From a virus, in IMG/VR virus record IMGVR_UViG_3300020220_000041: a stretch of 64,000 nt of DNA, one strand, 5' to 3'. Below the pieces are notes generated by a model, which worked only from the letters and a program-made list of their open reading frames with translations, ran no database searches and was not told the origin of the DNA. Of the stretch, positions 3,082 to 34,222 are shown one piece after another (the first letter of the stretch is position 1; every line of letters begins with the position of its first letter). A program made the translations under genes and the position numbers.

Positions 3082-4089
3082 CTACCCGCCAGAGCTAAAA
3101 CCCCGCTTCTGCACGTAACGGTGAACCTTGGCGGGATCGCCTCCCGTCTCCTCCCACATGTCGATGAACCGGTTCATCGACTCGAACCACTCGCCGTGCC
3201 GCTCGGGGTTGGGGCGGGTCGTGACGATGCGCTCGACGTTGTAGGTGTGCCGTCGCAGGTGGCCCCGGGTGCCGTAGTAGTAGCGGTTGTTGAGAACCTG
3301 GCGTTCGATGTAGGGCTTGTCGGCCTTGACGAGGAAGGGAGCCGAGGACGCCCGGTACAGGTCGCGGAGGAAGTCCTCGATGTCGCCGAGGCCGGTGAGC
3401 TTCCGGGCCTCGGTGGGGCCGACGGGGGTCTCCACGTAGCGGTCCTCGTAGACGGTGACGTACTGGTGCAGGTTCCCGTCGTACTTCTGGGCGGGGACGC
3501 GCTCCTGCCAGACGGGCCAGGTCACGGTCTTGTGGCTCATGGAGCGGGTGAGGAGGCGGTGTCCCCAGCCGGTCTCCACGATCTCCCGCAGGAGCCGGAC
3601 CCGACGAGCGTGGCGACGCTCCCGCACGGCCTTCTCCTCGGCCTTCTTCTCCTCGGGGGTGAGGGCGGGCCGGAGACGGAAGCCGTAGCGGAACTCGTCG
3701 GTGCGGAACTCCTCGTAGACCCGAAGGTGGGTGAGGGCGTGCTCCCCGATGAGCCCCTTGGGGAGGATCGACCGCATGTACGACAGGCGGGTCGAGGGGT
3801 CCTCGATGTCCTTGGTGATCTCGACCGCCCACTTCTCGAAGTGCCCGAGCTTGTCGGCCGCCCGACGCTCCGACACGATGTAGCTGATCTTCTCGTCGGG
3901 GTAGTAGAAGAGGTCGACGTCGTCGTCCGCCTCGAACTCCTCGTCGCGGAGCACCTTCCGCAATGCCTGCCGGATCTGGTGCCGGTTCCGCTGCTTGACC
4001 TCGCGAAGCTCGTACCGGGCGGACTTCCGCCGCGTCGAGGGAAGGATGGAACGAGCCATCTCCCGTCGCTTCTCATCACCGTAAAACAT
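3082..4089 (-). CDS. Hypothetical protein
   Basis: 335-aa ORF with protein-like composition (KR/DE-rich, aromatic residues). No recognisable motif. Confidence 0.55.
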   Translation of the reverse strand: MFYGDEKRREMARSILPSTRRKSARYELREVKQRNRHQIRQALRKVLRDEEFEADDDVDLFYYPDEKISYIVSERRAADKLGHFEKWAVEITKDIEDPSTRLSYMRSILPKGLIGEHALTHLRVYEEFRTDEFRYGFRLRPALTPEEKKAEEKAVRERRHARRVRLLREIVETGWGHRLLTRSMSHKTVTWPVWQERVPAQKYDGNLHQYVTVYEDRYVETPVGPTEARKLTGLGDIEDFLRDLYRASSAPFLVKADKPYIERQVLNNRYYYGTRGHLRRHTYNVERIVTTRPNPERHGEWFESMNRFIDMWEETGGDPAKVHRYVQKRGFSSGG

Positions 4090-4240: not shown

Positions 4241-4627
4241 CTACTCGGAATCGGGGACTTGTGCAGCCCCCTCTGGCGGCTTCCAGGTGAGGTCGCTGAC
4301 CCAGGGGTGCATGGTGCCGGGGTAGCCTCGACACCAATGCGAGTCCGAGGGGGACCACTTCGGGCGTTCGGCACCCCGCTTGCCCCGCTTCAGGGCTCGC
4401 TCGGCCTTCAGGGCCTCGGACTGGTTGGCGTAGGGACCGAACACGGCACGAAGCTGCCACGGGCGATGCTTCGCTGTGTACCGGCCTCCGCCGACAATCT
4501 CGCCGTTGTGCTGACGCAGGCGACGGGGGACGAGGGTGGTGCATCCGACGTAGTAGAAGCCAGGAAGGGGGCGACCCCGCTTCCCGAACCTCGGCTCGAG
4601 CGACTGGATGACGTAGACCCACCACAT
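4241..4627 (-). CDS. GIY-YIG nuclease family protein
   Basis: WWVYVIQS...GFYYVGCT...RRLRQHNG matches the GIY-YIG core. The likely start is the ATG at 4627 (the track ORF extends to 4657). Confidence 0.6.
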   Translation of the reverse strand: MWWVYVIQSLEPRFGKRGRPLPGFYYVGCTTLVPRRLRQHNGEIVGGGRYTAKHRPWQLRAVFGPYANQSEALKAERALKRGKRGAERPKWSPSDSHWCRGYPGTMHPWVSDLTWKPPEGAAQVPDSE

Positions 4628-4663
4628 GATGACAGTGTACCCGCCGCCCTGAGACAACTCGGG

Positions 4664-4688
4664 CCGGGATGGTGATGTCCCATCCCGG
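4664..4688. terminator. Hairpin CCGGGATGG-N7-CCATCCCGG downstream of gene 4713-5201
   Basis: Perfect 9-bp stem, 25 nt past the stop codon. Confidence 0.4.
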
Positions 4689-4712
4689 CCCGAGTTTCAA
4701 GTCAACGAGGGA

Positions 4713-5201
4713 CTACGCGAGGGTGCAGCCGTCGTTCTGCGCGACGCGCCAACGGAGGGCCGTACCGTTGTAGACGGCGACAAGCTGGATGCTGTCGTTC
4801 ACGTCGTTGAGGGTGATGACCGTGTTGCCGGCCTGGTTGATCGCCTGAGCGACCGTCACCACGCAGTCCCCGCCGTCCGTCTGGAAGTAGAGGGTGACCA
4901 TCTGGTTGATGAAGGTCGGGATGGCCAGGGTGCGGGTCTGGGCCCCGGTGGTCACCAGCGCACAGGTGCCCGAGCGGGTCACGACGATGGCCCCCGCGTT
5001 CCCCGGGTCGGTGATGATGTTGTCGGGGCGGACGATGCCCAACTCGGCGAGAACCGCCTCGACGGTGGTTCCCGAGAAGTAGCCGGCAGAGTCGACCACG
5101 CCCACGAGGGCCGCTCCGAAGGAAGCGGTCGTGGACGCAAGCTGCGCCTGGAAGTTCGAGACAAGCTGCGAGACCTGACGTGCGGTGAACCGGATGGACA
5201 T
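4713..5201 (-). CDS. Beta-rich structural-type protein, tandem paralog A
   Basis: 162 aa. Its C-terminal ~100 aa are nearly identical to ORF 5231-6022 (GDCVVTVAQAINQAGNTVITLNDVNDSIQLVAVYNGTALRWRVAQNDGCTLA). A good RBS (AGAGGT) precedes the ATG. Confidence 0.6.
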   Translation of the reverse strand: MSIRFTARQVSQLVSNFQAQLASTTASFGAALVGVVDSAGYFSGTTVEAVLAELGIVRPDNIITDPGNAGAIVVTRSGTCALVTTGAQTRTLAIPTFINQMVTLYFQTDGGDCVVTVAQAINQAGNTVITLNDVNDSIQLVAVYNGTALRWRVAQNDGCTLA

Positions 5202-5230
5202 CGTGAACCTCTAGCGAAAAGGTGGGTAGA

Positions 5231-5662
5231 TCAGGAGAGAGCGCAGCCGTCGTTCTCAGCGAGACGCCAACGGAGAGCGGACCCGTTGTAGACCCCGACG
5301 AGTTGGACGCTGTCGTTCACATCGTTGAGGGTGACGATCGTGTTGCCGGCCACGTTGAAGGCGTTCGCCACGGTCACGACGCAATCCCCACCGTCCGTCT
5401 GGAAGTAGAGGACGATGCGCTGGTTCACGAAGGTGGGAGCCGCCAGGGTTCGGGTCTGGGCACCCGAGGTCACGATGGCGCAAGTCCCCGACCGAGTGAC
5501 CGGGATGGCCCCCCCGTTCCCCGGGTCGGTGATGATCGTCCCGACCATCGCGAGACCCAACTCGGCGAGAGCCGCCTCAACGGTGGTTCCCGTGAGGTAG
5601 GCCGCGGTGTCCGCAACACCCACGAGAGCCGCACCGCTGTGGGTGTGGACGAGGCCATACAC
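5231..5662 (-). CDS. Tandem paralog B of 4713-5201 (start uncertain)
   Basis: The homologous region starts near HSGAALVGVADTAAYLTG. The upstream part of track ORF 5231-6022 is a P/S/R-rich read-through. A GTG at 5662 or a TTG at 5761 are candidate starts. Confidence 0.45.
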   Translation of the reverse strand: MYGLVHTHSGAALVGVADTAAYLTGTTVEAALAELGLAMVGTIITDPGNGGAIPVTRSGTCAIVTSGAQTRTLAAPTFVNQRIVLYFQTDGGDCVVTVANAFNVAGNTIVTLNDVNDSVQLVGVYNGSALRWRLAENDGCALS

Positions 5663-5818
5663 GGGCTCGTCGTCTGGACAGCCCCCGTGGGTTGGCGCGT
5701 TCGTGTCGGGGCCGACTTCTGGGTTGATCGCGAGAAGGGAGTGCTCGGCCGTGCAACCCAAGGGCCGTGGGTCGAGGGACAGGGTGCCGAGGTGCTGACG
5801 GGCTACGGCTTCTAGGGC

Positions 5819-6002
5819 ACTACGAGAGCGACACGGACTCGCTCGATACCAACTGCCAGCGGAAGTTGGCTCCGACAAGCACCCCTTGAAGTAGGGCGAA
5901 GTCTCGAAGCCCGTTGAACGTGAGGGTGGTGTTGTTGGCCTTGTTGACGCCACTGGCGAACACGAACTGCCGTGTGCCGCCGAGGGTTGCTGAGCTGCTC
6001 GC
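5819..6002 (-). CDS. C-terminal segment of a gene split by the 6003-6476 insertion
   Basis: Directly left of the TIR, the minus strand reads ASSSATLGGTRQFVFASGVNKANNTTLTFNGLRDFALLQGVLVGANFRWQLVSSESVSLS followed by a stop. It is in frame with ORF 6474-6737 if 6003-6476 is removed exactly. Confidence 0.45.
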
Positions 6003-6476
6003 TGAAACCTACCTAAACCCACCCCAAAGTTAGGCGAACCTCAGGGACAGAAGCGATTCGCCTACAGGGCCCTTGCCAGGGCGTTGTCGGCGAAGGCTCC
6101 TGTCGAGGTCGTGAATCCAGCCTACACTTCGCAGGAATGCCCTTCCTGTGGTCATGTCTCCCGTGGGAATCGCACGGGAACGAAGTTCCAATGCCGTTCA
6201 TGCGGCAGGAAAGCTCACGCCGATTGGGTGGGAGCGTCCGGTGTTCTCAGACGTTCTGGGGATAACGACATCGGACGTGATGATCATCCACGGACCGTGA
6301 AAGCGACGTTGCGAAGGCGATGCCTGCTCCGCAGGCTCAGTCCCGCAAGGTCGTCATGCGAGCCCTCACCGTTGGGCCGGAGTCTTACTACCGAGGTACT
6401 CGTTCAGTCGGGGCTCGGCACAGGCTCGAACTTGGTGCCTGCTCACCTCCCTCTGGGTAGGTTTAGGTAGGTTTCA
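6003..6476. mobile_element. Miniature TIR-bounded element carrying a TnpB (IS605 OrfB) C-terminal remnant
   Basis: Perfect 17-bp terminal inverted repeats: TGAAACCTACCTAAACC at 6003-6019 and GGTTTAGGTAGGTTTCA at 6460-6476. The internal ORF has the TnpB zinc-finger/RuvC-III region. No obvious target-site duplication. Confidence 0.6.
6084..6470 (+). pseudogene. TnpB C-terminal fragment (truncated, lacks RuvC-I/II)
   Basis: NPAYTSQECPSCGHV...TKFQCRSCGRKAHADWVGASGVLRR matches the TnpB zinc ribbon plus RuvC-III. It is only 128 aa and has no N-terminal domains. Confidence 0.65.
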
Positions 6477-6737
6477 AGGAACGGTTGAGCCCACCACGAG
6501 AGAGAGCATCTGACCCGAGTAGATGGGGTTGGCGACCGTGGTGACCTCGGTTGGCCCCGCCGACCCAATCTCGATCGAGATGGCGGTGTTCACCGTCAGA
6601 GCGATGGAGTTGATGCCCGGATCGGGCATGTCTGCGGTGACGAGCGTCGTTCCGTAGATGCTCTCGAGGTAGGAGAGCCTCGAGAGGATCTGAAGGTAGC
6701 CGTGGCGGGGGATGGTCACGAACTCTGGACGCGGCAT
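6474..6737 (-). CDS. N-terminal segment of the gene split by the 6003-6476 element
   Basis: 87-aa ORF (MPRPEFVTIPRHGYLQ...LSLVVGSTVP) whose TGA stop lies inside the right TIR. The ATG is at 6737. Confidence 0.5.
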   Translation of the reverse strand: MPRPEFVTIPRHGYLQILSRLSYLESIYGTTLVTADMPDPGINSIALTVNTAISIEIGSAGPTEVTTVANPIYSGQMLSLVVGSTVP

Positions 6738-6774
6738 TCCGAAGTCCTCTCACCCGAGAGCCGCTATAAGCGGC

Positions 6775-8394
6775 TCAGGGAACGAGCCCGAACGTTTCGG
6801 CGACGGTGCGTCCGTCCGGCAGCCAGGCTTCCTTCAGGGCATCTCGAAGCTGGTCGAGAGCCTTCGTGGCCTGGTCCTGGTACTCGAAGTTGGCCCCGTG
6901 TGCGTACTTCCGCAGTTCCAGCAGGTACACGGCATCCCGAAGGCCCGCCTGGCCCCGCATCCGCACCCGGGTTCCGAGGGGGAGTGCGAGTCCCGCCTGC
7001 ATGAGGTTCCGGTCCGCCATGAACCGGTCGAACACCGCTGTGGAGCGGGCGAGCAGTTCGGGGACCTTGGCCTTCCCGATGTCGGACATGGGCTGGTAGT
7101 GGGAGTCGATCTGGATAGGGCCCGGCTCCGCCGTCAGGTGCTGTGCTCGGACCACCTGGAGGTGCCACGGGTAGGCCGTCCGCTGACGGTGCCAGTCTCG
7201 GGCCACGGCGAGCGAACACCGGAACGTGATGTTGACCTGAGCCAGCGTGTTGGCGAGGGGGTCGAGGTAGGTTTTCTCCCGAGGGCGAGAGAAGGACTGG
7301 ACATCCGACAACCCGCCCGATGCGGCCATCGTAATCTCCGCGTCAGGGCCGTCAGGAGCCGACGAGAACATCGTGGCGAGGTGCCCGGGGATCTGGGAGT
7401 CCGCCCCGTAGACAGCCTCGCGAAGGCCCATGCCCGCGAGTCCTGGGAGGGCTTGCTTGTAGGCTTCGGCGATGTCCTTCCAGACGGCTTCGACGGAGGC
7501 GGCTTTGGATTCCTGCGCTAGCAGGCTGCCGTCCCGGAGAACACGAGCGCGGTCCCGGAGGTGGGAGGTGTGGCCGCACCCGGTGGCGATGGTGCCCGGC
7601 AACGCCCAGCGAGCCCGGTCGAGGGCGGGTCGGAAGGGCTCCTTGTCTCCGATGCCGAGGGCCTTGCGGTTCTCCTCGCTGGAGAGGTGCTCCTTCCACC
7701 AGGCGACCTCGGCCTCGAAGACCTCGAACCAGTCGTTGTGGAGTTCGACGAGGTCGGGGTGTGGCTCGGACTTGTTCGGAATCACGGGGCCTGTGGCTTC
7801 GTCTCCGTCCCCGATCATCCGAAGCTGCGTGCCCGTGGAGGGGAGGTTGCACTCCCGAGCCATCGGCCAGTCGGCGTGCTGAACGGCCCGGGTCGAGAAC
7901 TCCTGACCCGTACAGAGCGGGGAGTCGAACAGGAGCCACGCGGTCAGCCAGGAGATGCCTTCGGCGAAGATTGTGGGGGAACCAGTCAACTCCATCACGG
8001 AACTGTGCCCGTAACGACCTACGAACTCGTCGAAGAACTTTTGGAATCGGGGATGAAGGGGGTACTCGCAGAGCCGATCCTCGGCGATTTGCCGAGCGTC
8101 GTACAGATGTCTCTCGTGGATTTCCTGAAGGACCTTGTCTTCGTACTGCAATGCCAGGGCGTCTTTCCAGGACAGTCCATGGATGTCCTTGTTCCCCGAG
8201 GCGACCCGATCGGTCAGCGGCCCATCCCAGTTGGCCTCGGCGATGGCATCCACGACCTGTCCGTATCGAACGCGGATCCCCCCGACAGGGGCTCTGGACG
8301 ACTGCGCGCATAGACAGGCGCGCACTTCTGGTGTAAGTTTGTGGTCGAGCCAGAAACAACCCGGGCCGACAGGGTGAAGGTACTTGAACACCAT
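6775..8394 (-). CDS. Tandem ThyX-like (flavin-dependent thymidylate synthase family) protein
   Basis: The C-terminal half has ThyX signatures: FRCSLAVARDWHRQRTAYPW (an RHR-like RQR) and LALPLGTRVRMRGQAGLRDAVYLLELRKYAHGANFEYQ (compare LPL..T..NARSL.NFL.LR..HAQWEIQ). The N-terminal half looks like a degenerate second ThyX domain. The start is uncertain (the track ORF extends to 8439). Confidence 0.5.
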   Translation of the reverse strand: MVFKYLHPVGPGCFWLDHKLTPEVRACLCAQSSRAPVGGIRVRYGQVVDAIAEANWDGPLTDRVASGNKDIHGLSWKDALALQYEDKVLQEIHERHLYDARQIAEDRLCEYPLHPRFQKFFDEFVGRYGHSSVMELTGSPTIFAEGISWLTAWLLFDSPLCTGQEFSTRAVQHADWPMARECNLPSTGTQLRMIGDGDEATGPVIPNKSEPHPDLVELHNDWFEVFEAEVAWWKEHLSSEENRKALGIGDKEPFRPALDRARWALPGTIATGCGHTSHLRDRARVLRDGSLLAQESKAASVEAVWKDIAEAYKQALPGLAGMGLREAVYGADSQIPGHLATMFSSAPDGPDAEITMAASGGLSDVQSFSRPREKTYLDPLANTLAQVNITFRCSLAVARDWHRQRTAYPWHLQVVRAQHLTAEPGPIQIDSHYQPMSDIGKAKVPELLARSTAVFDRFMADRNLMQAGLALPLGTRVRMRGQAGLRDAVYLLELRKYAHGANFEYQDQATKALDQLRDALKEAWLPDGRTVAETFGLVP

Positions 8395-9748
8395 GAAGAA
8401 CTCCTGGTCACTGCAAGAGGATGAGATCGTGAAGACCATCTACCCATACCGAGGTTCGGTTGGAGCGGCAGAGGCTCTCCGAGAGGCTGGGTTTCTTCGC
8501 ACACGCAAAGCAACCGGCTTCAGAGCGGGTGTGTTGGGCGTCCAGTTGCTTCCTGAAGGCCGTGCCCTTCTCAATACTCAACAAGCGGACCGTGCTCGTC
8601 AAACCGCCTCTGCGATGTGGGCCGCCATGTCAGATGAGGAGCGACGCCGTAGGTCGGATCTCACTCAGGAAACAAGCACTGCCTACTGGTCACGAGAAGG
8701 ATCCCGAGAGCAACACTCCGATAAGATGCGTGAAGTCCTGACTCAGCGGTGGGCCGCAATGACACCCGATGAACGTGAAGCCCACAGTCAGAAAATGAGG
8801 AGGGTGTGGGAGCTAAAGACACCAGAACAAAAGGAAGCACACGGCAAGCACACTTCGGAGAAAAACATCCGATTCTGGGCGTCCCTCTCTGACGTTGAGC
8901 GAGAACACCTCAAAATAGCCATTGGGGCTGGACAACAACGGCAGTGGGCGAATCTTTCCGAGGAGGAGAGACAACAGGCCCGCGAAAGACATCGGGTCGT
9001 CATGTTGGCGGTGTGGGCTTCCCTATCCGATATTGAGCGGGAGGCGTGGGCGGCCACAGGTACAAAGAACCTCAAGCGGGTTGACTGGGCCTCCTTGTCC
9101 GAGGAGGAAAGCCTTGCCCGTCGCCAAGTTCATGGAGAGCGGACAAAGGCAATGTGGGCATGTTTCACGGATGATGAGCGTGATCGCCTATGCCGTATTT
9201 GGAGTGAACAACTCAAGAAACGCTGGGCGGAAGGCTCTCCGGAGGATGTGGCCAAGATGCTCGCGACAGCACACCAGAACTCCCAACAGGCCATGCGAAA
9301 GAATAACCTAAAGAGCCCGAATAAAGCAGAGACCTCTGTTCGGGATTTTGCCATTCCAGGGCTGGAGATGACGTTGAGTGACCCCGAAGCTAGGGTGCTT
9401 CTGCGTCATCCTGATGGACGGAAGTGGCGGAAGAATCCGGACTTCGCTTTTGAGTGGCGCGGTGCCCGCTCAGATGGGAGCCCACGACTTGTTGTGGAGG
9501 TGATGGGTTTTGGGAAGTGGCACTCCAAAGACGAAGTACAGCATCTTGTCGATGAGTACGCCGTCAAAGGAACAGTGTGTCTCGTGGTAGATGCACGGGA
9601 TCTACAGAAGCATCCTGCCGAGGTGCGGACACGCATCGAAGCAGCTATTGCCGCTCTGGGTCCGGTTCAGCCGCGTCCTGTTCCGGGGTTGTGCAGCGGA
9701 ATGGTCCAGTCATGGATCCAGTCCGAAAAGCGGATCAACCCCAACTGA
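8393..9748 (+). CDS. Homing-endonuclease-like protein: Myb/SANT-like N-terminus, tandem W..LS.EER repeats and a C-terminal Vsr/DUF559 PD-(D/E)xK nuclease
   Basis: WSLQEDEIVKTIYPY (SANT-like). At least six repeats follow (MWAAMSDEERRRR, RWAAMTPDEREAH, RFWASLSDVEREHL and others). The C-terminus DFAFEWRGARSDGSPRLVVEVMGFGKWHSKDE matches the DUF559/Vsr fold. It lies on the plus strand inside a minus-strand block. Confidence 0.5.
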   Translation: MKNSWSLQEDEIVKTIYPYRGSVGAAEALREAGFLRTRKATGFRAGVLGVQLLPEGRALLNTQQADRARQTASAMWAAMSDEERRRRSDLTQETSTAYWSREGSREQHSDKMREVLTQRWAAMTPDEREAHSQKMRRVWELKTPEQKEAHGKHTSEKNIRFWASLSDVEREHLKIAIGAGQQRQWANLSEEERQQARERHRVVMLAVWASLSDIEREAWAATGTKNLKRVDWASLSEEESLARRQVHGERTKAMWACFTDDERDRLCRIWSEQLKKRWAEGSPEDVAKMLATAHQNSQQAMRKNNLKSPNKAETSVRDFAIPGLEMTLSDPEARVLLRHPDGRKWRKNPDFAFEWRGARSDGSPRLVVEVMGFGKWHSKDEVQHLVDEYAVKGTVCLVVDARDLQKHPAEVRTRIEAAIAALGPVQPRPVPGLCSGMVQSWIQSEKRINPN

Positions 9749-14461: not shown

Positions 14462-15538
14462 TCAGTCGATGCCGCACACCGTCTTGAGGATGCGGGCGGT
14501 CACGACGTAGGGGTCGACGTTCGCACAGGGGCGGCGGTCCTCGAGGTACCCGGAGCCCTTCTCCTTCACGGAGCGGGGGATGCGGATGCTCGCCCCCCGG
14601 TTCGCGATGCCCCAGCGGAACTCCTTGTACGAGCAGGTCTCGTGCTTCCCGGTGAGTCGAGCCTCGATGCCATCCCCGTAGCAGGCGATGTGCTCCGCGT
14701 GCTTCTCCCCGAGCTTCTCGCAGGCGGACTTGATGGCGTAGATGCCGAACTTCTGCTGGGACTCCCGATTGGCCTTCTCGTCCGTGCCGCCGAAAGAGGC
14801 GGGGTCAAGCCGCATCGCCGCCGTCGAGAAGTTGGTGTGGGCACCGGCACCGTTCCAGTCACCACGGGCGGGCTTCGGGTCGAGGGAGGCGTTGATCTCG
14901 TGGTCCTCTCCGAGCCGGTAGAGGAGCCAGCGGGCCAGCCACAGGTGGTCCGCCACCGTGAGCGGGTCCGAGGTCCCGATCTGGAACTCCCACTGGCCGG
15001 GCATGACCTCGGCGTTGGTCCCGTAGAGCAGGAGCCCGGCGTCGAGGCACGCCTTCGTGTGGGCCTCGATCAGAGGGCGACCAACCACCTCGTCGGCTCC
15101 GACGCCGCAGTAGTAGGGGCCCTGGGGAGCCGGGTAGCCGTTGTCCGGGAAGCCGAGCGGACGGGAGCCCTTGAACAGGGTGTACTCCTGCTCGATGCCG
15201 AACCAGGGCTCTTCGACAGCGGCACCCGCGTCGAGGACACGACGAAGCTCGGCCCGGGTGTTCGACTTGTGCGGGGTGACCTCGTCGCCGTTGAGGACTT
15301 CGCACAGGACGAGGTAGTTCGGGACGCCTCGAATCGGGTCCGTGACGACGCGAACGGGCTTCAGAGCGCAGTCAGAGTCGTGACCTTCGGCCTGGTACGT
15401 GGACGAGCCGTCGAAGCCCCACACGGGGAACTTGTCCGGGGTCGGCTCCCCCTCGATCTCCACAATCCGGGTCTTGGAACGTAGCTTCTGGGTGGGCGCG
15501 GCTCCGTCCATCCAGATGTACTCTGCCTGTGAACGCAT
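14462..15538 (-). CDS. glnII: Glutamine synthetase type II
   Basis: YIWMDG...LRSKTR, GIEQEYTLF, GPYYCGVGA, AEVMPGQWEFQIG, GAHTNFST and ASIRIPR. The length of 358 aa is typical of GSII. Confidence 0.8.
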   Translation of the reverse strand: MRSQAEYIWMDGAAPTQKLRSKTRIVEIEGEPTPDKFPVWGFDGSSTYQAEGHDSDCALKPVRVVTDPIRGVPNYLVLCEVLNGDEVTPHKSNTRAELRRVLDAGAAVEEPWFGIEQEYTLFKGSRPLGFPDNGYPAPQGPYYCGVGADEVVGRPLIEAHTKACLDAGLLLYGTNAEVMPGQWEFQIGTSDPLTVADHLWLARWLLYRLGEDHEINASLDPKPARGDWNGAGAHTNFSTAAMRLDPASFGGTDEKANRESQQKFGIYAIKSACEKLGEKHAEHIACYGDGIEARLTGKHETCSYKEFRWGIANRGASIRIPRSVKEKGSGYLEDRRPCANVDPYVVTARILKTVCGID

Positions 15539-25773: not shown

Positions 25774-28700
25774 ATGAAGTCGTCGACCAATCGAGTTGCC
25801 AGTCGGTGGATGCAAGCCGAGAACACGGACGAGCCGTCCGAGTCTGTCGGTGACGTGTCCCCCGGTGCCTTCGTGGACCTCATGGCGTTCTTCCAGGCGG
25901 TCGCGGCCTACCGTGCGCTGAAAGGAGACGAGGACCCCCAGACGCGGCGTGCGGCTCCCCTGGTTCGTCGTTTCCAGAGCGATCTGGTGGCGGGAGCGAA
26001 CCGGTACTTCGCACCCCTGACCGACGACACGGCCTTCGCCGGGTTGCGGAATGAGGTTCGGACGCTGACTCGGGGGACTCGTGGTCTCGACCACGCCTCC
26101 GAGCAAGCGGCGGCTCTCCGGAAGATTCTGTGGACCCTGCATCCGAAGCCGCAGGTGGTCCGCGAGGTGTTCTCGGACTCGCGTTCCTACACGGCGGTGA
26201 TGCGTCTGGCGGCCTTGGCCGCCACCGACTCTGCGGGAAGCCTGCTGAACAGCGTGGCGTCCCTCACCCCGGCCTCCCGGCTTCAACTGACCCGGAAGTG
26301 GATCCGTGACGCGGCGGAGGCGGCCAACGTGGCCCCCTCCAAGGTGGAGACGGTGCTGTCGGATGCGGAGAACGCTCGCCACCTGGGTGAGGATCTCCAC
26401 ACGGTCGAAGTCCAGTTGGCGACTGCGGACCCGGTGTCCCAGCGTGCCGCCGACCTCCAGGTCGAGAAGCAAGCCATCATCGACCAGATCGAGAAGGTGG
26501 TCGCGGACAGCCCCTCTCCGGCGGTGGTGTTGTCGGCGGCGGCCTCGGCTACGACACAGCCCCAGGACTACGCCACGGCCACGGCGAAGCGGTCCAGGCT
26601 CTCGCCAGACCAAGAGCGGGCGATGATGGCCCGTGGGAAGGCGATCATCGCGGCGGGTGCGGGTTCTGGAAAGACCGCAACCCTGGCCTCGAAGGTGGCC
26701 TACCACGTCAACGAACTTGGCGTCCCTCCTGGAGCGGTCATCGCGACCTCGTTCTCCCGGAAGTCGGCCGCTGAGCTTCGGCGGCGGATTGCCAAGTACG
26801 GGGCCGACATCCCGGACTCGGCGAGCACAGGGTTCGGCACCACTCACTCGGTCGCGGGCAAGCTCCTCCGGGAGTATGGCGGCGGTGGCCGGAATGGGAT
26901 GAAGAGCTACCAGCAGACCGACCTGGTTCGGTTGGCGATGGAGCAGGTCCAGATGGTCGGACCTGGTGTCGCGCCTCCGCCTCCCACGAGTCTGTTCGAC
27001 GTGTCCTCGGACGCCCCGGTCGGCATCAAGTTCCGCGATGCCATCCAGATGGCCTTCGATCGCCGCCACAAGCTCGACCCCTGGTCGAAGGGGTTCATCG
27101 AGTCGTTCTACAACCCGAGCGACCAGTGGTACGCCCGGACGATGCGGGCCACGGGGAACCTGACGAATCCGCATGGGCTGTCCGACAAGCAGCGTGAGAT
27201 CGTCAAGAAGGTCTTCGGGCGGTTGGGCATCAACTACTCGCCGACCACGGACCCCGGCCTGGCTCCCGCGCAGACCCAGCCCGCTCCTCGAGTGGCGGCC
27301 AAGGACAAGAACAAGGGGCTCCGCGAGAAGTACAAGTTCTTCTCCCAGCCCGCGAACGAGTGGTTCAACCTCGGCCTCGAACTGGTCGAGGAGGACGGTC
27401 AGGGCAACAAAAAGCCCATCCCGACCGGGTTCTTCAAGAACGCCATCTCCAAGTTCAAGGGTCGGGCGGTGTCGCCCTCCGAGGCTTGGGCGCTCTCCAA
27501 CGGGTCCCCCGAGGCGGCGGTGTACGCGGCCTATGAGTGGCTGAAGGGGTCGAAGGGCGAGACGGACTTCCAGGGTCTCGGCGACTTCGACGACGTGCTC
27601 CTCGACGTGTCGAAGATGCTCCTGTCGTCTCCTCGGGTGAGGCAGCAGGTCCAGTCGCGGTTCAAGGTGGCCCTCGTGGACGAGGCCCAGGATCTCAACC
27701 GGGCACAGCACCTCATGTTCGGCCTCATCACCGGGTTCGTGGACCCGGCGAAGGTGCCCAACATCGCCACCGCGAAAAAGATGGGCGAACTCGCCAAGGA
27801 TGACGGCTCGATGACGGCCGACACCTACTGCTTCATCGGCGACGACAAGCAGTGCGTGGAAGCCAATTCCTTGGTTGAGACTCAGAATGGGCCTCGACGT
27901 GTCGGAGACCTCGCTCCTGGCGATGAGGTACTTGCCTACCGCAATGGGAAGGTGCTTCTGCAGGCTGTACGCCATGTCGTCCCCTCGTCCTGGACATGGG
28001 GCTACAAAGTCACGATGGAGTCTGGGCAAACGCTGACGATGAGCCCCAACCACAAGCTCTGGGCAACCGAGCCTCAGACCGAAGATGGTCAGGTGGCCGT
28101 GTACCTGATGTATCGAAAGGACATGGGGTTCCGCGTTGGGATCACCAACAAGGGCAAGGTGGGCTCCGAGGAGGACTACCTGAACTCTTACGGGGGTCGA
28201 GTCTTCCTGGAGAAGGCCGAACGTCTGTGGGTTCTGGACATCTGCTCTAGCCGGGAGGAGGCTCTGCTGACAGAGACGGATCTCTCCCTGACCTACGGTA
28301 TCCCCACCACAGTGTTCAACGGGGAACACCGTGATCTCAATCAGGATCGGATCAACACCATCTTCCAGAAGCATGGGAAGAATGGAGGCCGCCTGTTGGA
28401 GGAGCGAAACCTCTCTTTTGATCTGCCCCATTGGATGAGCCAGAGCTACACAAAGCATGGCCGGGACCGGCACACTCTTCAGTTCTTGGCCCACAGCACG
28501 AAGGGCTCTCAGGTCGCGATGGAGTGGGTGGGTGACAAGTTCGACAAGGTGTTGCAGGATGTGAGCTTCAACATCACGGGTGAGCGCCGTCGGCTACGGC
28601 GGTGGTTCGGAAACTACCGTGAGGGCCTCGCTCATGCCGAGGAGGTGGCTCGTCGCACGGGTGCCAATCTGTCCTACCGGATGGCTACCCCCGAAGGAAC

Positions 28701-30306
28701 ATTGCGGGAAACGACCGCATCCGGGTTGTTCGTCGGAATGTCCATTCCCGTGCTCGATCAAGAGAACGAAACGATCGCTCTCGATCGAGTTGCCTGCATT
28801 GAACGGGTGGACGGCAGCTTCATCGATCTCGATGTGTTGGATGCCAGCAACTTCTTCGCCAACGGCATCCTGACTTCCAACAGCATCTACGAGTTCCGTG
28901 CGGCGGACCCCGAGGCGTTCATCGACATGAGCGAACTCGTGGCGGGTGGGGCCGGGTTCAAGACCGAGGTGCTGAAGACCAACTACCGGTCGGGGCAGTT
29001 GATCGTGGAGGCGGCCAACCGGCTCATCTCCTACAACACCAAGCAGATCCCGATGACCTGTGCCGCGAACCCACAGCGCGTGGACCGGGGTGGCATCGAG
29101 GCGGTCAACTTCGCTCCGGTCGAAGGTCGGGACATGAGTGCCCCGGCCGAGTGGCTCGCCACCTCCATCGCCGAGACGATGGAGGAAGGACGTGCGGGGG
29201 CCAAGGGCTACGACGCCTTCGGGGTGGGGCTGCGGTCCAACGCCGAGGCATACACCTACGGCATCGAGCTTCTGAAGAAGGGCATCCCGTTCCGCTCCAA
29301 GGCCAACTTCTTCGGCGACCCGACCACCAAGGCGCTGTTGCACTGGCTCACCATCGCCGATGAGGGTGTTGGTGGGAGTGTGGACCGGGTCAACGAGGCG
29401 GTACTGGGTGCCCGCAAGGCTCCAGCGTCGAAGCTCGGGGACAAGTTCGAGGAGATCCTGACCCAGCGGGCCACCGGGAACTACCTGACCTGGCTTCAGG
29501 ACAACTGGACCGAGGTGTACGGCTCTCGGGGCGACTGGGCGATGCTGGTTCGGTCCTTCGTGGACAACCTGCTGGCGGTCGCCGGGATGAAGGGCGGAGC
29601 CTCCGAACAGGTGCTCGAGACGATCCTCGACCTCACGGGGCACGACGGTCGGTCGGTCCGCCAGGTGCTCGTCGACCGGGTGTCCGAGGATGAGGAGGCC
29701 ATCGCCGAGCTTCGGGCCGAGTCCCCCACGGGCACAGTCACGGACGAGGAGATCGAGTCGATGGCGTTCGCGCCCATCGCTCCTCTGAAGGGTCTGTTGG
29801 GTGCTCGGGCGGACCTCAGCGAGGCGATGAAGTACGTCCGGCAGCTTCAGTCCGCGAACGAGAAGCTGGCTGCGGACGACGACCCCGACAACAAGAAGGC
29901 TCGTGAGCCCGCCGTCACGCTGGGCACGATGCACTCCTGGAAGGGCCTCGAAGTCGAGAACATGTACATCCCCTTCGTCGGCGGCCGGTTCCCCCGGTTC
30001 GATGCGGACGAGGAGGATCTGGCCTCCGAGCGTCGTCTCGCCTACGTGGCGGTGACTCGCGGTGAGAACCGGGTCGTGGTGATGAACATCCCGACGGTGC
30101 GTCGGACGAAGCAGGGAGCCGTCACCCAGACGAGCCAGTTCGTCGGCGAACTGTGCATCCCTCCGGCGGTGGACAGTCCATTCAGCGCGGGAGATGAGGA
30201 CGCCGAGCAGGAAGTGCTGCGGCTCGAGGAGCGGATGAACCGAACCGCGTCCTACCTCTCGGACGAAGCCATCTCGGCCTACCTCTCGGGCCAAAAGGGG
30301 CGGTGA
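25774..30306 (+). CDS. UvrD/PcrA-like superfamily 1 helicase with ~280-aa N-terminal extension, interrupted by an intein
   Basis: Motif I AIIAAGAGSGKTATL, motif II ALVDEAQDLN, and motif III split as GDDKQ|C...N|SIYEFRAAD. Total 1510 aa. Confidence 0.7.
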   Translation: MKSSTNRVASRWMQAENTDEPSESVGDVSPGAFVDLMAFFQAVAAYRALKGDEDPQTRRAAPLVRRFQSDLVAGANRYFAPLTDDTAFAGLRNEVRTLTRGTRGLDHASEQAAALRKILWTLHPKPQVVREVFSDSRSYTAVMRLAALAATDSAGSLLNSVASLTPASRLQLTRKWIRDAAEAANVAPSKVETVLSDAENARHLGEDLHTVEVQLATADPVSQRAADLQVEKQAIIDQIEKVVADSPSPAVVLSAAASATTQPQDYATATAKRSRLSPDQERAMMARGKAIIAAGAGSGKTATLASKVAYHVNELGVPPGAVIATSFSRKSAAELRRRIAKYGADIPDSASTGFGTTHSVAGKLLREYGGGGRNGMKSYQQTDLVRLAMEQVQMVGPGVAPPPPTSLFDVSSDAPVGIKFRDAIQMAFDRRHKLDPWSKGFIESFYNPSDQWYARTMRATGNLTNPHGLSDKQREIVKKVFGRLGINYSPTTDPGLAPAQTQPAPRVAAKDKNKGLREKYKFFSQPANEWFNLGLELVEEDGQGNKKPIPTGFFKNAISKFKGRAVSPSEAWALSNGSPEAAVYAAYEWLKGSKGETDFQGLGDFDDVLLDVSKMLLSSPRVRQQVQSRFKVALVDEAQDLNRAQHLMFGLITGFVDPAKVPNIATAKKMGELAKDDGSMTADTYCFIGDDKQCVEANSLVETQNGPRRVGDLAPGDEVLAYRNGKVLLQAVRHVVPSSWTWGYKVTMESGQTLTMSPNHKLWATEPQTEDGQVAVYLMYRKDMGFRVGITNKGKVGSEEDYLNSYGGRVFLEKAERLWVLDICSSREEALLTETDLSLTYGIPTTVFNGEHRDLNQDRINTIFQKHGKNGGRLLEERNLSFDLPHWMSQSYTKHGRDRHTLQFLAHSTKGSQVAMEWVGDKFDKVLQDVSFNITGERRRLRRWFGNYREGLAHAEEVARRTGANLSYRMATPEGTLRETTASGLFVGMSIPVLDQENETIALDRVACIERVDGSFIDLDVLDASNFFANGILTSNSIYEFRAADPEAFIDMSELVAGGAGFKTEVLKTNYRSGQLIVEAANRLISYNTKQIPMTCAANPQRVDRGGIEAVNFAPVEGRDMSAPAEWLATSIAETMEEGRAGAKGYDAFGVGLRSNAEAYTYGIELLKKGIPFRSKANFFGDPTTKALLHWLTIADEGVGGSVDRVNEAVLGARKAPASKLGDKFEEILTQRATGNYLTWLQDNWTEVYGSRGDWAMLVRSFVDNLLAVAGMKGGASEQVLETILDLTGHDGRSVRQVLVDRVSEDEEAIAELRAESPTGTVTDEEIESMAFAPIAPLKGLLGARADLSEAMKYVRQLQSANEKLAADDDPDNKKAREPAVTLGTMHSWKGLEVENMYIPFVGGRFPRFDADEEDLASERRLAYVAVTRGENRVVVMNIPTVRRTKQGAVTQTSQFVGELCIPPAVDSPFSAGDEDAEQEVLRLEERMNRTASYLSDEAISAYLSGQKGR
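27853..28881 (+). other. Intein (343 aa: Cys1 ... terminal Asn, +1 Ser) inside UvrD motif III
   Basis: The host motif GDDxQSIYxFRGA is broken between Q and S. The insert starts CVEANS and ends ANGILTSN. Its size allows an endonuclease domain. Confidence 0.6.
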
Positions 30307-31130
30307 TGCCAACCTACGTTCAACTCACCCGCGAAGAGTTCGAGGACTGGCTCAACGGCCTGGCCCATCGTTGGCGGCTGAAGCCGGGCACGGTGGGCAT
30401 CTACGAAGTCCCGATGTCGGAGACGGTGTCGGTCGAAATCTCGTCCTCGATGACGGGACGCGATGACGTGATGAACCGTGCTCAAGCGTCGATGGGCTGT
30501 CGGCTCGTCAGCATGATCACGGGGTTCACGCTCAACAAGAAGGCGCAGGAACAGTCCCACGTCAAGCGGACGATCAACTGGCGGGACAACCTGAAGAAGG
30601 TCTACCAGCGGATGGTGGACGCCTACGAGAAGTCCTCGGCCTTCTACGACGCTCTCGCCGAGATCCGCGACCGTGACGCCTACAAGCGGGATTGGATGGA
30701 GCGCATCGAGGAGGTCCCGGGTTGGCAGTCCAACACGTTCCTCTCCGACATGCACTCGCGGCTGGCCGACAACGGCATCATGACTCTCCGTCAGCGAGAT
30801 GCGGTGGAGAGGGCTTTGAGCCGCCCCCAGGCTGCCCCCGCACCCGCCCCGGCTCCCACACCTCCGTCGTCGGGAGTAGACTCGGTGCTTCTGGCCCAAG
30901 TCCGCGCCCTGTACGTGGTGGCGAAGGGCCGTGGGAATCAGTGGGCGATGGACTTCGCGAAGTCCGTCGGCGAGTTGATCAAGGCGGGCCGGAGCCTCTC
31001 GAGCAAGCAGCGGGACGTGCTCGACCGCCTGCTGAACGAGAACCGTGGGGAAGTGGAACGGTACGTGGACACCCACCCGCAGGTCGCACGGATCGCCTCT
31101 CGTCACCTGGCGCAGTTGGGAGTTCTGTGA
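30303..31130 (+). CDS. Hypothetical protein
   Basis: 275-aa ORF. Its stop overlaps the next start as TGATG. Confidence 0.5.
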   Translation: MMPTYVQLTREEFEDWLNGLAHRWRLKPGTVGIYEVPMSETVSVEISSSMTGRDDVMNRAQASMGCRLVSMITGFTLNKKAQEQSHVKRTINWRDNLKKVYQRMVDAYEKSSAFYDALAEIRDRDAYKRDWMERIEEVPGWQSNTFLSDMHSRLADNGIMTLRQRDAVERALSRPQAAPAPAPAPTPPSSGVDSVLLAQVRALYVVAKGRGNQWAMDFAKSVGELIKAGRSLSSKQRDVLDRLLNENRGEVERYVDTHPQVARIASRHLAQLGVL

Positions 31131-34100
31131 TGACGACCTCCGCTTCACGAAATCGCATGGTTCGGCGGATCGCTGACACCTACCTGGGTTCCATCCGGGT
31201 CGCTGAGGAGGAGGCTCCATTCGAGGACGACTCGGCCGACGAGCCGCTCCCTACTCGACCCATGTTCTCGTCGAGTGCCCGCCAGAAGTTGTTCCGAGCC
31301 TTTGGTCCCAGAGGCATCGCGTTCTTCGATCTCTACGACGCCCTCCGCCAGGTCGCCGTAGGGGGTCTGCCTCCGGAGAGTGGCTTCGTCCATGAGTTCC
31401 GGGCGTTGTCTCGCATCGTGGCTCGGTTCCTCACAACGGAGCCGACCAAGGGCAAGCTCGCGGATATCGCCTCCAGGCTACGCCCGTTGTTCGACCGCAT
31501 CGACAGCGGAAGGGCCAGTCGCGCCGTGTTCCGCACAGCGGCAGGTCTGTACGCGACTCTCGTACAGGAGGTGGCTTCCGACCGCGACGTCCACCTCGCA
31601 CCGATGTCCGGCGGTGCTCCGGGCTGGGTGGCGTTCAAGCTCATGTCCGCCCGCGAGGAGAAACTCGACGAGTTGATGCGGAACGACCCCGAGGCGTTCA
31701 ACGTCATCCAGCGGTCGAGGTCGATCGTCCGACAGATCGATCGGTCCATCGAGAAGGAAATCTCCGATGGCGGCCTCATCCCCAGCAAGAAGGAGATCCT
31801 CGGCCGTCCTGTGCAGACGGGGAAGGATCCTGTATCGGGCGACGAGTACGTGTTCGACACCGACGGAGAGATGCTCTCCATCCCCTCCTTCATCGAGAAG
31901 CGTCGCAAGGCTCTCGAATCCCAGGAAGCGGCCCGCCGAGTATTCCCCCGCAACGTGGCGGACTTGAGGTCGCTGAACGACGAGGAACTGGACGCCTTCA
32001 CGGTGGGGAGCATGGAGTACGTCGCTCTCACCGACGACAAGGCCAAGTCAGGTGGGCTCACGCGCATCTACCCGGCGAAGCGCACCGTGGACGGCGACCT
32101 GGTGGTTGTCGATGGTCGGTTCAAGGGCATCTACATCGACGACCTCGTGAACCGTGCGGGTCGGATGATCGAAGGTGTGGCCTTCGACGTCGATCCGAAG
32201 AACGGCGTGCCTGTCCCGATGGAGACACGAAACCCGGATGGCACCCCCAACGTTCGCTCGAGCCGCGAGCCTTACGTCACGGTCGGCACCAAGGGGTCGC
32301 TCTACCTTCGCATCCCAAGCGGACACGGGTTCACGGCGGCCCGCAACGCCCTGACGGCTCTTTCCAAGAGCATCCCGTCCCTTCAATACGTGGAGGGGTC
32401 GCGGAAGTCGGCCTTCACGTTTGAGCCGAAGGACTTCGCCACGGTTCGCGAGGCTCTGGGTGGGCTTGCGCTCTCCACGGCAGCCACGAAGCTGCTCCGG
32501 GACTTCTTCTCGGGCCTCGCCAAGCACGAACTCGCCATCTCCAGCGAGAACCTGCAACTCTTCGACACCGACCGTATCGGCGGCTTCAAGCCGGGGCGTC
32601 GCCTCTACAACAAGCAGAAGGAGGCGATGGCCTGGCTTGAGTCCCGTGGGCACTCGGGCGTCGTCGCCCTTGACACCGGCCTGGGCAAGACCGCGACCAC
32701 CATCGCCTCGATGCAGAAGATCATCCGGGATGGGCTCATCGAGGAGAACCAGCAGTTCCTCTACGTGTGCCCCAAGGCGTTGAAGGGGAATCTCCCGAAG
32801 GAAATCGTCGCGTTCGTCGAGGATCCCGAGACGCTCCTCTCGCGCGTGAAGGTGATGACCTACCAGGAGTTCACTCGAGCCGTCAAAGACGACCCGAACT
32901 TCGCGGACCGCTACGCGGCTGTGTTCTTCGACGAGGCCCAGGCGCTCAAGAACTCGAAGTCCGGTCCAGGTCGGGCTGCGATGGCCCTCCGACACCCGAA
33001 GAAGGTGCTGTTCACGGCGAGCCCCATGGAGAAGTCTCCCATGGAGGTCTTCAACCTCGTCGCCATCACCAACAACATCGACCTGAACACGCGCGAGGGT
33101 GCAGCACAGGCTCGAGCCTTCCGTCGGCGGTTCGCCGAAGAGGTGGGTGGGAAGATCATCGGGATCAAGAACGACCCCGTCACGGCTCGGGATTTCCGCG
33201 TCTGGGTGAAGCGGAACCTCTACTTCGCCGACAAGCGGGACGTGGAGGAGGTCGTTCTCCCGCAACTCCGGTCCCAGACCGTGGCCATCACGATGGACCC
33301 CGAAGTCGAGGCTCGCTACCGCGAGGTGGCCAAGAGCGTCGAAGGGGTGCTCGCTGGGATGGTGGCGAAGTACCGCGACCGTGACCCATCCGCGAAGGAT
33401 CCAGCCATCGAAGCGGCTCGGGTGCGTCTGCGGAAGGAGTTCGGAATCCTGTTTGAACTGGCCAATGCCCCGCAGAAGGCCGTCCCAGGGGCCTCGAACC
33501 CGAAGATGACCCACCTCGTTGACATCCTCGACGAGCGGGTGGGCGCGAATAGACGGACCCTGGTATTCACGGACAGTCCGGACCTTGCGGGCGAAACCGC
33601 AGAGATCCTCTCGACCCGATTCCCCGGGCATAGCGTGGCCGAGTGTCTCGCGCAGTCCATCCGGGAATGGAAGGGCGGCCGGGTGGTCCAGGTCTACAGG
33701 GAGGCCAAGTACACGGATGGCAAGCGGACCTGGCCCAAGAGCGACTGGAAGGTCTACGTCCTCGACCGGATCGTGAGCCCCGATCCCGACTACATCGCCT
33801 GTGTCCTCACATCGACATACGCCGTGGGTCAGAACCTCCAGCAGTTCGACACGGTCGTCCACCTCGACCGCGATGCGTGGAACAACGAGGTGATGAAGCA
33901 GCGCACGGCCCGAGCGTGGCGGAGCGGGCAGCAGCACTCAGTCGAGGAGTACGTGCTCGACGCCGTGTACTCTGACCCGGCCAATGACCGGGACGAGACG
34001 CTCGACCAGATCGTCGCCCACCTCCAGCGGCTCGAGTCCGAGTTGTTCGACCAGGTCATCATCGAGAGCCAGTCGGAAGCCCTCGGGAAGGAGTGGTTCG

Positions 34101-34222
34101 GGATGAAGCGACTCCACTCCTCCTTCGTCGAGTTGAGTCGGCGAATGCTCGAACTCTCGATGTCCCCTTACGCGCAACGTCTTGGGCTCCATGAGGTTCA
34201 GGAAATGGCCCAGAAAGCGTAG
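31130..34222 (+). CDS. SNF2/RAD54-family helicase with long N-terminal region
   Basis: ALDTGLGKTATTIA (motif I), FFDEAQALKN (DEAH box) and YAVGQNLQQFDTVVHLDRDAWNNEVMKQRTARAWRSGQ (motif VI). Confidence 0.7.
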   Translation: MTTSASRNRMVRRIADTYLGSIRVAEEEAPFEDDSADEPLPTRPMFSSSARQKLFRAFGPRGIAFFDLYDALRQVAVGGLPPESGFVHEFRALSRIVARFLTTEPTKGKLADIASRLRPLFDRIDSGRASRAVFRTAAGLYATLVQEVASDRDVHLAPMSGGAPGWVAFKLMSAREEKLDELMRNDPEAFNVIQRSRSIVRQIDRSIEKEISDGGLIPSKKEILGRPVQTGKDPVSGDEYVFDTDGEMLSIPSFIEKRRKALESQEAARRVFPRNVADLRSLNDEELDAFTVGSMEYVALTDDKAKSGGLTRIYPAKRTVDGDLVVVDGRFKGIYIDDLVNRAGRMIEGVAFDVDPKNGVPVPMETRNPDGTPNVRSSREPYVTVGTKGSLYLRIPSGHGFTAARNALTALSKSIPSLQYVEGSRKSAFTFEPKDFATVREALGGLALSTAATKLLRDFFSGLAKHELAISSENLQLFDTDRIGGFKPGRRLYNKQKEAMAWLESRGHSGVVALDTGLGKTATTIASMQKIIRDGLIEENQQFLYVCPKALKGNLPKEIVAFVEDPETLLSRVKVMTYQEFTRAVKDDPNFADRYAAVFFDEAQALKNSKSGPGRAAMALRHPKKVLFTASPMEKSPMEVFNLVAITNNIDLNTREGAAQARAFRRRFAEEVGGKIIGIKNDPVTARDFRVWVKRNLYFADKRDVEEVVLPQLRSQTVAITMDPEVEARYREVAKSVEGVLAGMVAKYRDRDPSAKDPAIEAARVRLRKEFGILFELANAPQKAVPGASNPKMTHLVDILDERVGANRRTLVFTDSPDLAGETAEILSTRFPGHSVAECLAQSIREWKGGRVVQVYREAKYTDGKRTWPKSDWKVYVLDRIVSPDPDYIACVLTSTYAVGQNLQQFDTVVHLDRDAWNNEVMKQRTARAWRSGQQHSVEEYVLDAVYSDPANDRDETLDQIVAHLQRLESELFDQVIIESQSEALGKEWFGMKRLHSSFVELSRRMLELSMSPYAQRLGLHEVQEMAQKA

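Follow-up and report, generated by a model that had tools for sequence, protein, structure and literature searches.

The window analysed here, a stretch of 64,000 nucleotides (64 kb) from the viral record IMGVR_UViG_3300020220_000041, carries on its minus strand a small gene broken in two by an insert, which we assign to the IS607 family of insertion sequences. The insert contains a perfect inverted repeat, and between the arms of this repeat the plus strand encodes the end of a TnpB protein. The upstream part of the broken gene appears as an open reading frame (ORF) of 87 amino acids (aa), 6737..6477, which runs through 8 nt of the insert to a TGA at 6476-6474 in the repeat arm. On the other side, 60 codons are open on the minus strand (6002..5823), with no start codon of their own save a GTG at 5963. 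An initial annotation of this stretch had suspected a frameshift near 5939-5941; it is absent, and the printed bases translate cleanly. We compared the rejoined product with 5.8 billion proteins and obtained two matches. The first, P0001, is a full-length homologue of 139 aa (74% identity) encoded by contig L001, and is the uninterrupted gene that the initial annotation had proposed to look for in relatives. The second, P0002, is the 87-aa fragment itself, present on contigs from several samples. Over 4 kb, six further contigs (L002-L007) share 99.85-99.97% identity with the window, and their insert is 100% identical, indicating one insertion event in one phage population. The N-terminal part of the gene shares 86% aa identity with residues 1-84 of P0001. 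Against L001, the N-terminal part has a dN/dS ratio of 0.15 and the C-terminal part one of 0.34, values compatible with a recent insertion.

The boundaries of the insert were defined by comparison with L001. A first MAFFT alignment of the window with L001 misplaced the insert, and local alignments were used instead. In these, 522 nt of the window stand against 24 nt of L001, that is, a net insertion of 498 bp and not of 474 bp as first proposed. Where P0001 reads ...VVGTTLGGTR..., the window reads ...VVGS(TVP/ASSSA)TLGGTR.... Once the 498 bp are deleted, codon 85 of the host gene is rebuilt and the 139-aa product aligns colinearly with P0001, with zero gaps; the 8 extra residues (TVP/ASSSA) of the 147-aa reconstruction made earlier are coded by the element's own tips. 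Removal of 6003-6476 does join the two halves in frame, as had been pointed out, but this carries no information, because any precise insertion restores the frame on removal and the extra 24 bp are a multiple of 3. The break point may be placed anywhere within the 5-nt repeat GGTTG, found at 5985-5989 and at 6483-6487, and no target-site duplication (TSD) is present at the element ends. The 17-nt inverted repeat described in the initial annotation (TGAAACCTACCTAAACC and its exact reverse complement) was recovered as such: its arms are the sole two 17-mer matches in the window at up to 3 mismatches, for 0.02 expected by chance.

The ends of relatives of the element were then aligned. In all 39 relatives aligned, the right end is ...AAGGAACGG(T), beyond which the sequences diverge; the right-end terminus of the family can also be written ...GGTAGGTTTCAAGGAACGG(T), and homology extends 8 nt past the repeat arm. 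Family members are alike outside both arms, over 16 nt on the left and over AGGAACGG on the right. Since this shared sequence lies beyond both arms, the repeat is subterminal and not terminal as it had been called, its arms starting 16 nt inside the left tip and ending 8 nt inside the right tip. On the left, NGGG ends all nine flanks examined (window, L027, L094, L113, L044, L069, L047, L074 and L106) as well as those of L122 and L124, and is followed by a family left end that reads T(T/C)G.AGCTG.TCGCTGAAA.CTACCTAAACC. By BLAST, the left end of the window element is 86-92% identical to those of L027, L094, L044 and L113. The GG core at 5985-5986 recurs at the right tip (6483-6484), the junctions being ...GAGGG/TT... 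at the left flank and ...AACGG/TT... at the right tip. The vacant site reconstructed from these junctions is GAGGG/TTGAGCCC, or in longer form ...GCCGAGGG/TTGAGCCCACC..., and a 19-mer of it has no match in IMG/VR. Altogether, these alignments establish the boundaries of the insert. Inside the arms, motifs of about 7 nt are repeated with a 10-bp spacing: AAACCTA (6005-6011) and AAACCCA (6015-6021) in the left arm, and TAGGTTT twice (6458-6464 and 6468-6474) in the right arm. Both arms are kept in full-length relatives with 1-3 mismatches. From their arrangement, these pairs of TAGGTTT-like motifs are plausibly binding sites, at present candidate ones, for the transposase TnpA. TnpA-dependent movement of IS607 elements goes through a circular double-stranded DNA intermediate; for the window element, such a circle would be predicted to contain the junction ...AAGGAACGG/TTGCTGAGCTGC....

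Between the arms, the plus strand matches Pfam PF07282 (Cas12f1-like_TNB) with E=1e-14, in agreement with the zinc-finger/RuvC-III remnant of TnpB recognized in the initial annotation, and by tblastn the remnant is 79% identical to residues 344-480 of the TnpB of L027. The TNB zinc finger lies at 6084-6236 and the Asp of RuvC-III (KAHAD) at 6222-6224. RuvC-I and RuvC-II are missing, the corresponding motifs of relatives (GVDVGLN and VLEDLD) falling in a deleted part, and therefore no nuclease is possible. Three of the relatives are complete: L027 (1743 bp), L094 (1751 bp) and L113 (1766 bp). In each of them, the single ORF is a TnpB with the motifs GVDVGLN, VLEDLD and AHADWVGA. Alignment with these copies establishes an internal deletion in the window element: nucleotides 1-53 of the left end are joined to the last ~440 nt, and ~1.26 kb of the ~1.75-kb parent is gone, comprising the 5' leader and the N-terminus of TnpB through RuvC-II. 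Independent short derivatives include L047 (443 bp), L044 (436 bp) and L074 (57 bp, reduced to the two repeat arms). In L074, this mini-element of ~56 bp (3185-3240), with left and right repeat arms only (TTCGTAGCTGTTTGCTGAAATCTACCTAAAAGGTTTAGGTAGGTTTCAAGGAACGG), adjoins GGGGG and may be a minimal substrate or a decay product of the IS607 clade.

To which family the element belongs was decided by its autonomous relatives. The TnpB tail has many metagenomic homologues, most of them at contig ends, as expected because the element is a repeat. A scan of public collections for the right-end terminus gave ~60 real family members in metagenomes and two contigs of one Actinomycetota metagenome-assembled genome (MAG); when GTDB genomes were searched with the right-end 17-mer, these two contigs were the real matches and the other 12 of the 14 were due to chance. 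The 17-mer GGCTCGAACTTGGTGCC gave 7 matches in IMG/VR, all by chance and in unrelated genes. Two of the relatives are autonomous. L106 has near-identical end sequences (left end TGGCAGCTATTCCGAGAAACCTAACGG... adjoining GGGGG, right end ...GGTTTCGTTAGGTTTCAAGGAACGG) and encodes a TnpA of 214 aa with HTH_17/MerR and Resolvase (E=1.7e-25) domains, followed by TnpB. L122, located in a 188-kb IMG/VR contig with ...AAGGG as left flank and ...GTAGGTTTTGAGGAACGG as right end, encodes a TnpA (Resolvase 1.4e-21, HTH_17 2.3e-12) directly upstream of a TnpB that belongs to the same clade as the window remnant and is 62% identical to that of L027. The presence in both of a serine-recombinase TnpA with an N-terminal helix-turn-helix (HTH) domain places the clade in the IS607 family and not in IS200/IS605. 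An initial reading as IS200/IS605, with target GGGT and a right end finishing ...CGGT, was dropped once these serine-recombinase relatives were found, and none of the full-length elements examined showed a Y1 gene. In both L122 (~2163-2370) and L106 (reverse strand, ~4909-5110), an ORF of ~68 aa is conserved between the left end and tnpA (MKRTMIVRVTTTEFETSDGRVIPHPIPF... and MPRTVITRVTETEFQTEDGRTIPHPVPF..., respectively); that of L122 has no Pfam match, and this ORF may be a third, uncharacterised gene of autonomous IS607 elements.

The ends of the window element were compared with what is described for IS607. At IS607 ends, short phased motifs make up an imperfect inverted repeat that is subterminal and lies at different distances from the two tips; the elements have GG termini and a (G)GG target, which they do not duplicate (PMC6188088). 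In the window, we likewise found a GG core shared by the tips and the target, no TSD, and a subterminal repeat of short motifs. The initial annotation had been puzzled by inverted repeats in an element that it compared with IS200/IS605, which have hairpins; the puzzle is resolved by the family, since the clade is IS607, with its subterminal imperfect repeat (PMC6188088). In the IS607 element of Clostridium botulinum, the transposon-adjacent motif (TAM) is TGGG, the omega-RNA scaffold and the right end finish ...UCGG, and TnpA excises the element precisely (bioRxiv 10.1101/2023.11.20.567912). The AGGG / ...ACGG pair of the window is the direct counterpart of this TAM and scaffold end. The clade is also present in other viruses: full-length TnpBs were found in IMG/VR contigs of 14-257 kb (L120-L128), nearly all of them large, with right ends that all read ...GGAACGG or ...GGAATGG. 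Nine clade TnpB loci lie in viral contigs of 55-257 kb, and two contigs (UViG_3300023257_000008 and UViG_3300025669_002088) carry two copies each.

The suggestion that the right end encodes an omega-RNA scaffold was borne out. We built a covariance model (R1) from 17 relatives, the window being excluded. Applied to the window, it gave a single hit with 184.8 bits and E=1.4e-49 over all 193 model positions. Four stem-loops are predicted, at 6303-6354, 6359-6379, 6380-6427 and, for the right-end hairpin, 6431-6478, followed by the tail GGAACGG. When 20 right ends were aligned, the multi-stem fold had 99.5% of cells paired and 7 compensatory pairs, values reached in 0 of 500 shuffles. When distant viral copies were added (alignment A4, which was fitted to the model), 26 of 40 pairs were compensatory and 93.9% of cells were paired, and none of 500 shuffles reached any of the five measures. 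The window RNA alone adopts the same fold, with a minimum free energy of -81.9 kcal/mol (z = -2.57). These results establish that the RNA is conserved. The right repeat arm forms the 3' strand of the last hairpin, and the conserved G-U pairs of this hairpin indicate that the arm has two roles, as an end motif in DNA and as part of the RNA structure. Of the short derivatives, L047 and L044 are still matched over the whole RNA model. The scaffold of the window clade corresponds to no Rfam family (window region and L027, L094 and L113 loci searched) and would therefore need its own model; the only Rfam match in relatives is RF03015, 'Transposase-2 RNA', in the right-end region of the more distant L106 (reverse strand, 1171-1241 in locus coordinates, 54 bits). 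A scan of 5700-6850 for sigma-70 promoters and terminators found nothing. In the layout described for TnpB and IS607, the scaffold finishes in ...CGG and the sequence flanking it on the 3' side acts as the guide (bioRxiv 10.1101/2023.11.20.567912). The predicted guide segment would here be the flanking phage DNA TTGAGCCCACCACGAGAGAG, which together with AGGG gives the sequence of the vacant site, and the RNA may have kept a residual guide activity with a TnpB supplied in trans.

From these data, we propose the following course of events. The parent was a ~1.75-kb element with TnpB only; the autonomous members of its clade have, in addition, a serine-recombinase TnpA with an N-terminal HTH. Such a TnpA, provided in trans by a copy in the host or in a co-infecting phage, would have bound the paired TAGGTTT motifs of the subterminal repeat, and strand exchange at the GG core would have placed the element into the AGGG site, in codon 85 of the 139-aa phage gene, without target duplication. 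Either before or after the insertion, an internal deletion of ~1.26 kb took the leader and TnpB up to RuvC-II, leaving the left end, a dead TnpB tail, an intact omega-RNA scaffold of ~180 nt and the right end. Such an element could presumably still be mobilised in trans, and its insertion may be reversible by precise excision by TnpA. The TnpA that moved the window copy could have come from the host or from another phage, because TnpBs of the clade recur in viral contigs. We consider it very probable that the insert is a non-autonomous, internally deleted IS607-family insertion sequence that arrived in this way.

Several points weigh against this account. The element encodes no TnpA and is therefore non-autonomous, and no other TnpB or TnpA exists in the window. 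A near-identical donor copy was not found, the closest relatives being ~80% identical. The sole 'empty' allele is the 74%-identical orthologue, whose site, AAGCGT, is not a GG target, so that the pre-insertion sequence is reconstructed and not observed. The T after ...ACGG is near-invariant, differing only in two L106-type copies (L055 and L070), which leaves an uncertainty of 1-3 nt on where exchange occurs. Finally, the covariation count of A4 rests on an alignment fitted to the model.

Other explanations were weighed against the IS607 account. A PATE-like element of the IS200/IS605 family, moved as single-stranded DNA by a Y1 'peel-and-paste' transposase through subterminal hairpins and inserted 3' of GGGT, would also fit the TnpB remnant, the missing TSD and the 4-5-nt motif conserved on the 5' side of the left end. 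A subterminal hairpin can form at the right end, and derivatives reduced to the omega-RNA have been described for IS605 (PMC10055086). However, both autonomous relatives found have a serine recombinase with an HTH and not a Y1 transposase, GG is present at both junctions with an NGGG / ...ACGG pairing that mirrors IS607, the conserved G-U pairs of the right-end hairpin point to RNA and not to a DNA hairpin, and the 57-bp L074 keeps the repeat arms only. We therefore hold an IS200/IS605 origin to be very unlikely. The perfect 17-nt inverted repeat and the small size would suit a classical miniature inverted-repeat transposable element (MITE) of a cut-and-paste DDE transposon, bounded by terminal inverted repeats and having captured a TnpB fragment, but no TSD is found, homology to the family continues 16 nt and 8 nt beyond the arms, and the interior is colinear with full-length TnpB elements having the same ends. 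The mapping of the boundaries refutes this reading, to which we give next to no chance. The MITE-like derivative of the initial annotation holds insofar as the element is non-autonomous and an internally deleted TnpB element; as a classical MITE with terminal repeats and TSD it fails, the repeat being subterminal and the TSD absent.

The initial annotation had also put forward a self-splicing, intein-like or HEARO-like arrangement, in which the insert (an IStron or group I intron, an intein or a HEARO-like RNA) would remove itself and restore the 139/147-aa protein at the RNA or protein level. This predicts a spliced junction GGCTCAACC/CTCGGC in RNA and not in DNA. The length is indeed a multiple of 3, both gene halves are open, and IStrons are known among IS607 and IS605 elements. 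However, the element is antisense to the host gene, stops occur in the host-gene frame at 6476-6474 and 6011-6009, Rfam gave no intron or HEARO match in 5600-6900 of the window (E<=10) or in the L027, L094, L113 and L106 loci (E<=0.1), and the 5' ~1.26 kb, where the ribozyme of an IStron would sit, is deleted. Splicing, intein and HEARO are therefore rejected, and we judge self-removal extremely unlikely. For an intein in particular, there is no continuous in-frame ORF through the insert; for a HEARO or IscB omega-RNA, Rfam gave no match and the protein remnant is of the TnpB type. A last possibility is that the insert is a module that was retained: the omega-RNA of the phage would load a TnpB of the host or of a co-infecting phage and cut genomes with the vacant site (AGGG followed by TTGAGCCCACC...), thus converting or eliminating competitor phages without the insert. 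In line with this, the full scaffold is intact though the nuclease is dead, three independent short derivatives (window, L047 and L044) keep the scaffold region, the TnpB clade is common in large viral contigs, with nine loci and two two-copy contigs, and omega-RNAs of PATE elements must use TnpB in trans (PMC10055086). On the other hand, no promoter-like site was found in the 5700-6850 scan, the kept region may simply have been spared by the deletion by chance, a search for a vacant-site phage allele on which the RNA could act gave none, and the 57-bp L074 indicates that the scaffold is not always kept. We regard this role as unlikely. If a borrowed TnpB did cut the vacant allele, the element would be a gene drive or an inter-phage weapon in a natural phage population.

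Table 1. Coordinates of the insert, its parts and the neighbouring paralogues in the window.
Feature	Position	Strand	Basis
Whole inserted element, 498 bp	5987..6484	+ (TnpB sense)	Comparison with uninterrupted homologue L001; end alignments of relatives
Transposon-adjacent motif/target AGGG abutting the left end	5983..5986	+	NGGG left flanks of relatives
Left end, homologous to the first ~53 nt of full-length elements	5987..6040	+	Global alignment to L027, L094, L113
Left arm of the 17-nt inverted repeat	6003..6019	+	Sole-match scan; conserved in relatives
Internal deletion junction	6041..6047	+	Alignment blocks against L027, L094, L113
TnpB C-terminal remnant	6042..6452	+	PF07282 match; tblastn
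Complete omega-RNA scaffold, ~180 nt	6306..6485	+	Covariance model
Right arm of the inverted repeat	6460..6476	+	Sole-match scan; RNA helices 8 and 9 of A4 with compensatory changes
Predicted guide segment of the omega-RNA, in flanking phage DNA	6485..6504	+	Inferred from the TnpB/IS607 layout
Host gene, N-terminal part: codons 1-84 and first base of codon 85	6485..6737	-	ORF; homology to P0001
Host gene, C-terminal part: rest of codon 85 to codon 139, stop 5822-5820	5820..5986	-	Homology to P0001
Two intact downstream paralogues of the split gene (4713-5201 and 5231-~5764)	4713..5764	-	BLASTP of P0001

The IS607 element of the window was then set beside known systems. In the IS607 family, exemplified by IS607 of Helicobacter pylori, IS1535 of Mycobacterium tuberculosis and CboIStron of C. 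botulinum, a serine-recombinase TnpA accompanies TnpB, as in the autonomous members of the clade. The window element resembles these by its GG termini, the NGGG target/TAM, the right end and scaffold finishing ...CGG, the lack of TSD and the subterminal repeat of phased motifs, but it lacks TnpA, and of TnpB it has kept just the final ~137 residues. The TnpB of the clade (~440-470 aa, with HADWVGA as RuvC-III context) is a weak match to Pfam OrfB_IS605. Unlike CboIStron, the window element and the relatives searched have no group I intron, and the omega-RNA of the clade has no Rfam family. Like the PATE-like IS605 derivatives of Geobacillus stearothermophilus and Clostridioides difficile, the window element keeps both ends and the omega-RNA with no working protein gene (PMC10055086), and both would depend on TnpA and TnpB in trans. 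PATE-like elements, however, come from Y1/single-stranded-DNA IS200/IS605 elements with palindromic hairpin ends, whereas the window element is of the serine-recombinase IS607 lineage and keeps a recognisable tail of a TnpB pseudogene. The parents (L027, L094 and L113) resemble TnpB-only ('IS1341-type') elements in having TnpB as single ORF with an omega-RNA overlapping its 3' end, but their ends and their autonomous relatives place them in IS607 and not in IS200/IS605.

The feature is ordinary in kind and does not overturn current understanding. For annotation, it means that the locus holds one 139-aa phage gene broken by a 498-bp IS607-derived element and not two small genes plus a 'transposase'. 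It is a clean natural example of the IS607 end rules, with the NGGG motif, the ...ACGG tip and the subterminal motif pairs. The IS607 TnpB clade, whose ~180-nt omega-RNA has no counterpart in Rfam, is found repeatedly in large genomes of uncultured phages and also in an Actinomycetota MAG. Its members have been shortened independently, to 498, 443, 436 and 57 bp, and in most of these derivatives the guide-RNA scaffold is preserved. The clade is also a potential source of compact TnpB/omega-RNA pairs with a G-rich TAM.

Relatives of the host gene were also sought. None of P0001 were found in IMG/VR, neither 4500-8500 nor the element itself had a BLASTN match among INPHARED phages, and the rejoined protein, compared with phages by tblastn, matched only tape-measure proteins at chance level (E ~0.5-0.8). 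An exhaustive HMMER search of 1.84 billion representatives gave 327 proteins at E<=1e-3, which share a domain of ~100 aa (P0001 residues ~35-139), usually C-terminal, in proteins of ~110-730 aa; one of the 327 has an N-terminal Phage_cement_2 domain. The same ~100-aa C-terminal beta domain is common to P0001 and the two intact genes downstream, with 30% identity to each (E=4e-8 and E=1e-7), so that the split gene (5820-6737) and its two neighbours are three tandem paralogues on the minus strand. Neither P0001, the window fragments nor the paralogues fall in a Pfam or PHROG family. The AlphaFold model is all-beta with a pLDDT of 91. Its PDB fold matches are weak (N-terminus of the CBA120 tailspike TSP4 and a capsid spike, E ~3e-3, TM ~0.5), and in BFVD many matches are to uncharacterised Caudovirales proteins and a few to tail-fibre proteins. 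The 'structural-type' gene of the initial annotation is thus plausible on these weak fold matches. In the model, the insertion falls at the centre of the beta-sandwich domain, where a turn links strands 77-87 and 90-94, and the 87-aa product is therefore almost certainly non-functional. Altogether, these results establish that the host gene is disrupted. The two intact tandem paralogues may make its loss tolerable.

The surroundings of the locus were also inspected. By its gene content, the window seems to belong to a large phage genome. The host of the phage is probably an actinobacterium. Six tRNA genes lie at 935-1935 on the minus strand (Thr-TGT, Thr-GGT, two Thr-CGT, Lys-TTT and Gln-TTG). 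Clustered tRNA genes are typical of large phage genomes, and four Thr tRNAs in a row are unusual. A small GIY-YIG protein, free-standing (PF01541 on the L002 orthologue), is encoded at 4241-4657 (-), two genes downstream of the insertion; no link between this gene and the element was seen. Directly upstream of the split gene, a 554-aa ORF (6775-8439, -) has faint similarity to ThyX (Thy1), and is about twice the length of an ordinary ThyX. A 358-aa ORF at 14462-15538 (-), whose L002 orthologue has the Pfam domains Gln-synt_N and Gln-synt_C, is a putative phage-encoded glutamine-synthetase-like auxiliary gene. On the plus strand, ORFs of 1510 aa (25774-30306) and 1176 aa (30692-34222) match helicase PHROGs (phrog_1967 at 1e-60 and phrog_62 at 2e-38). 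Finally, an ADP-ribosylglycohydrolase-like gene is located at 62127-63164, and the window also has a MazG gene.

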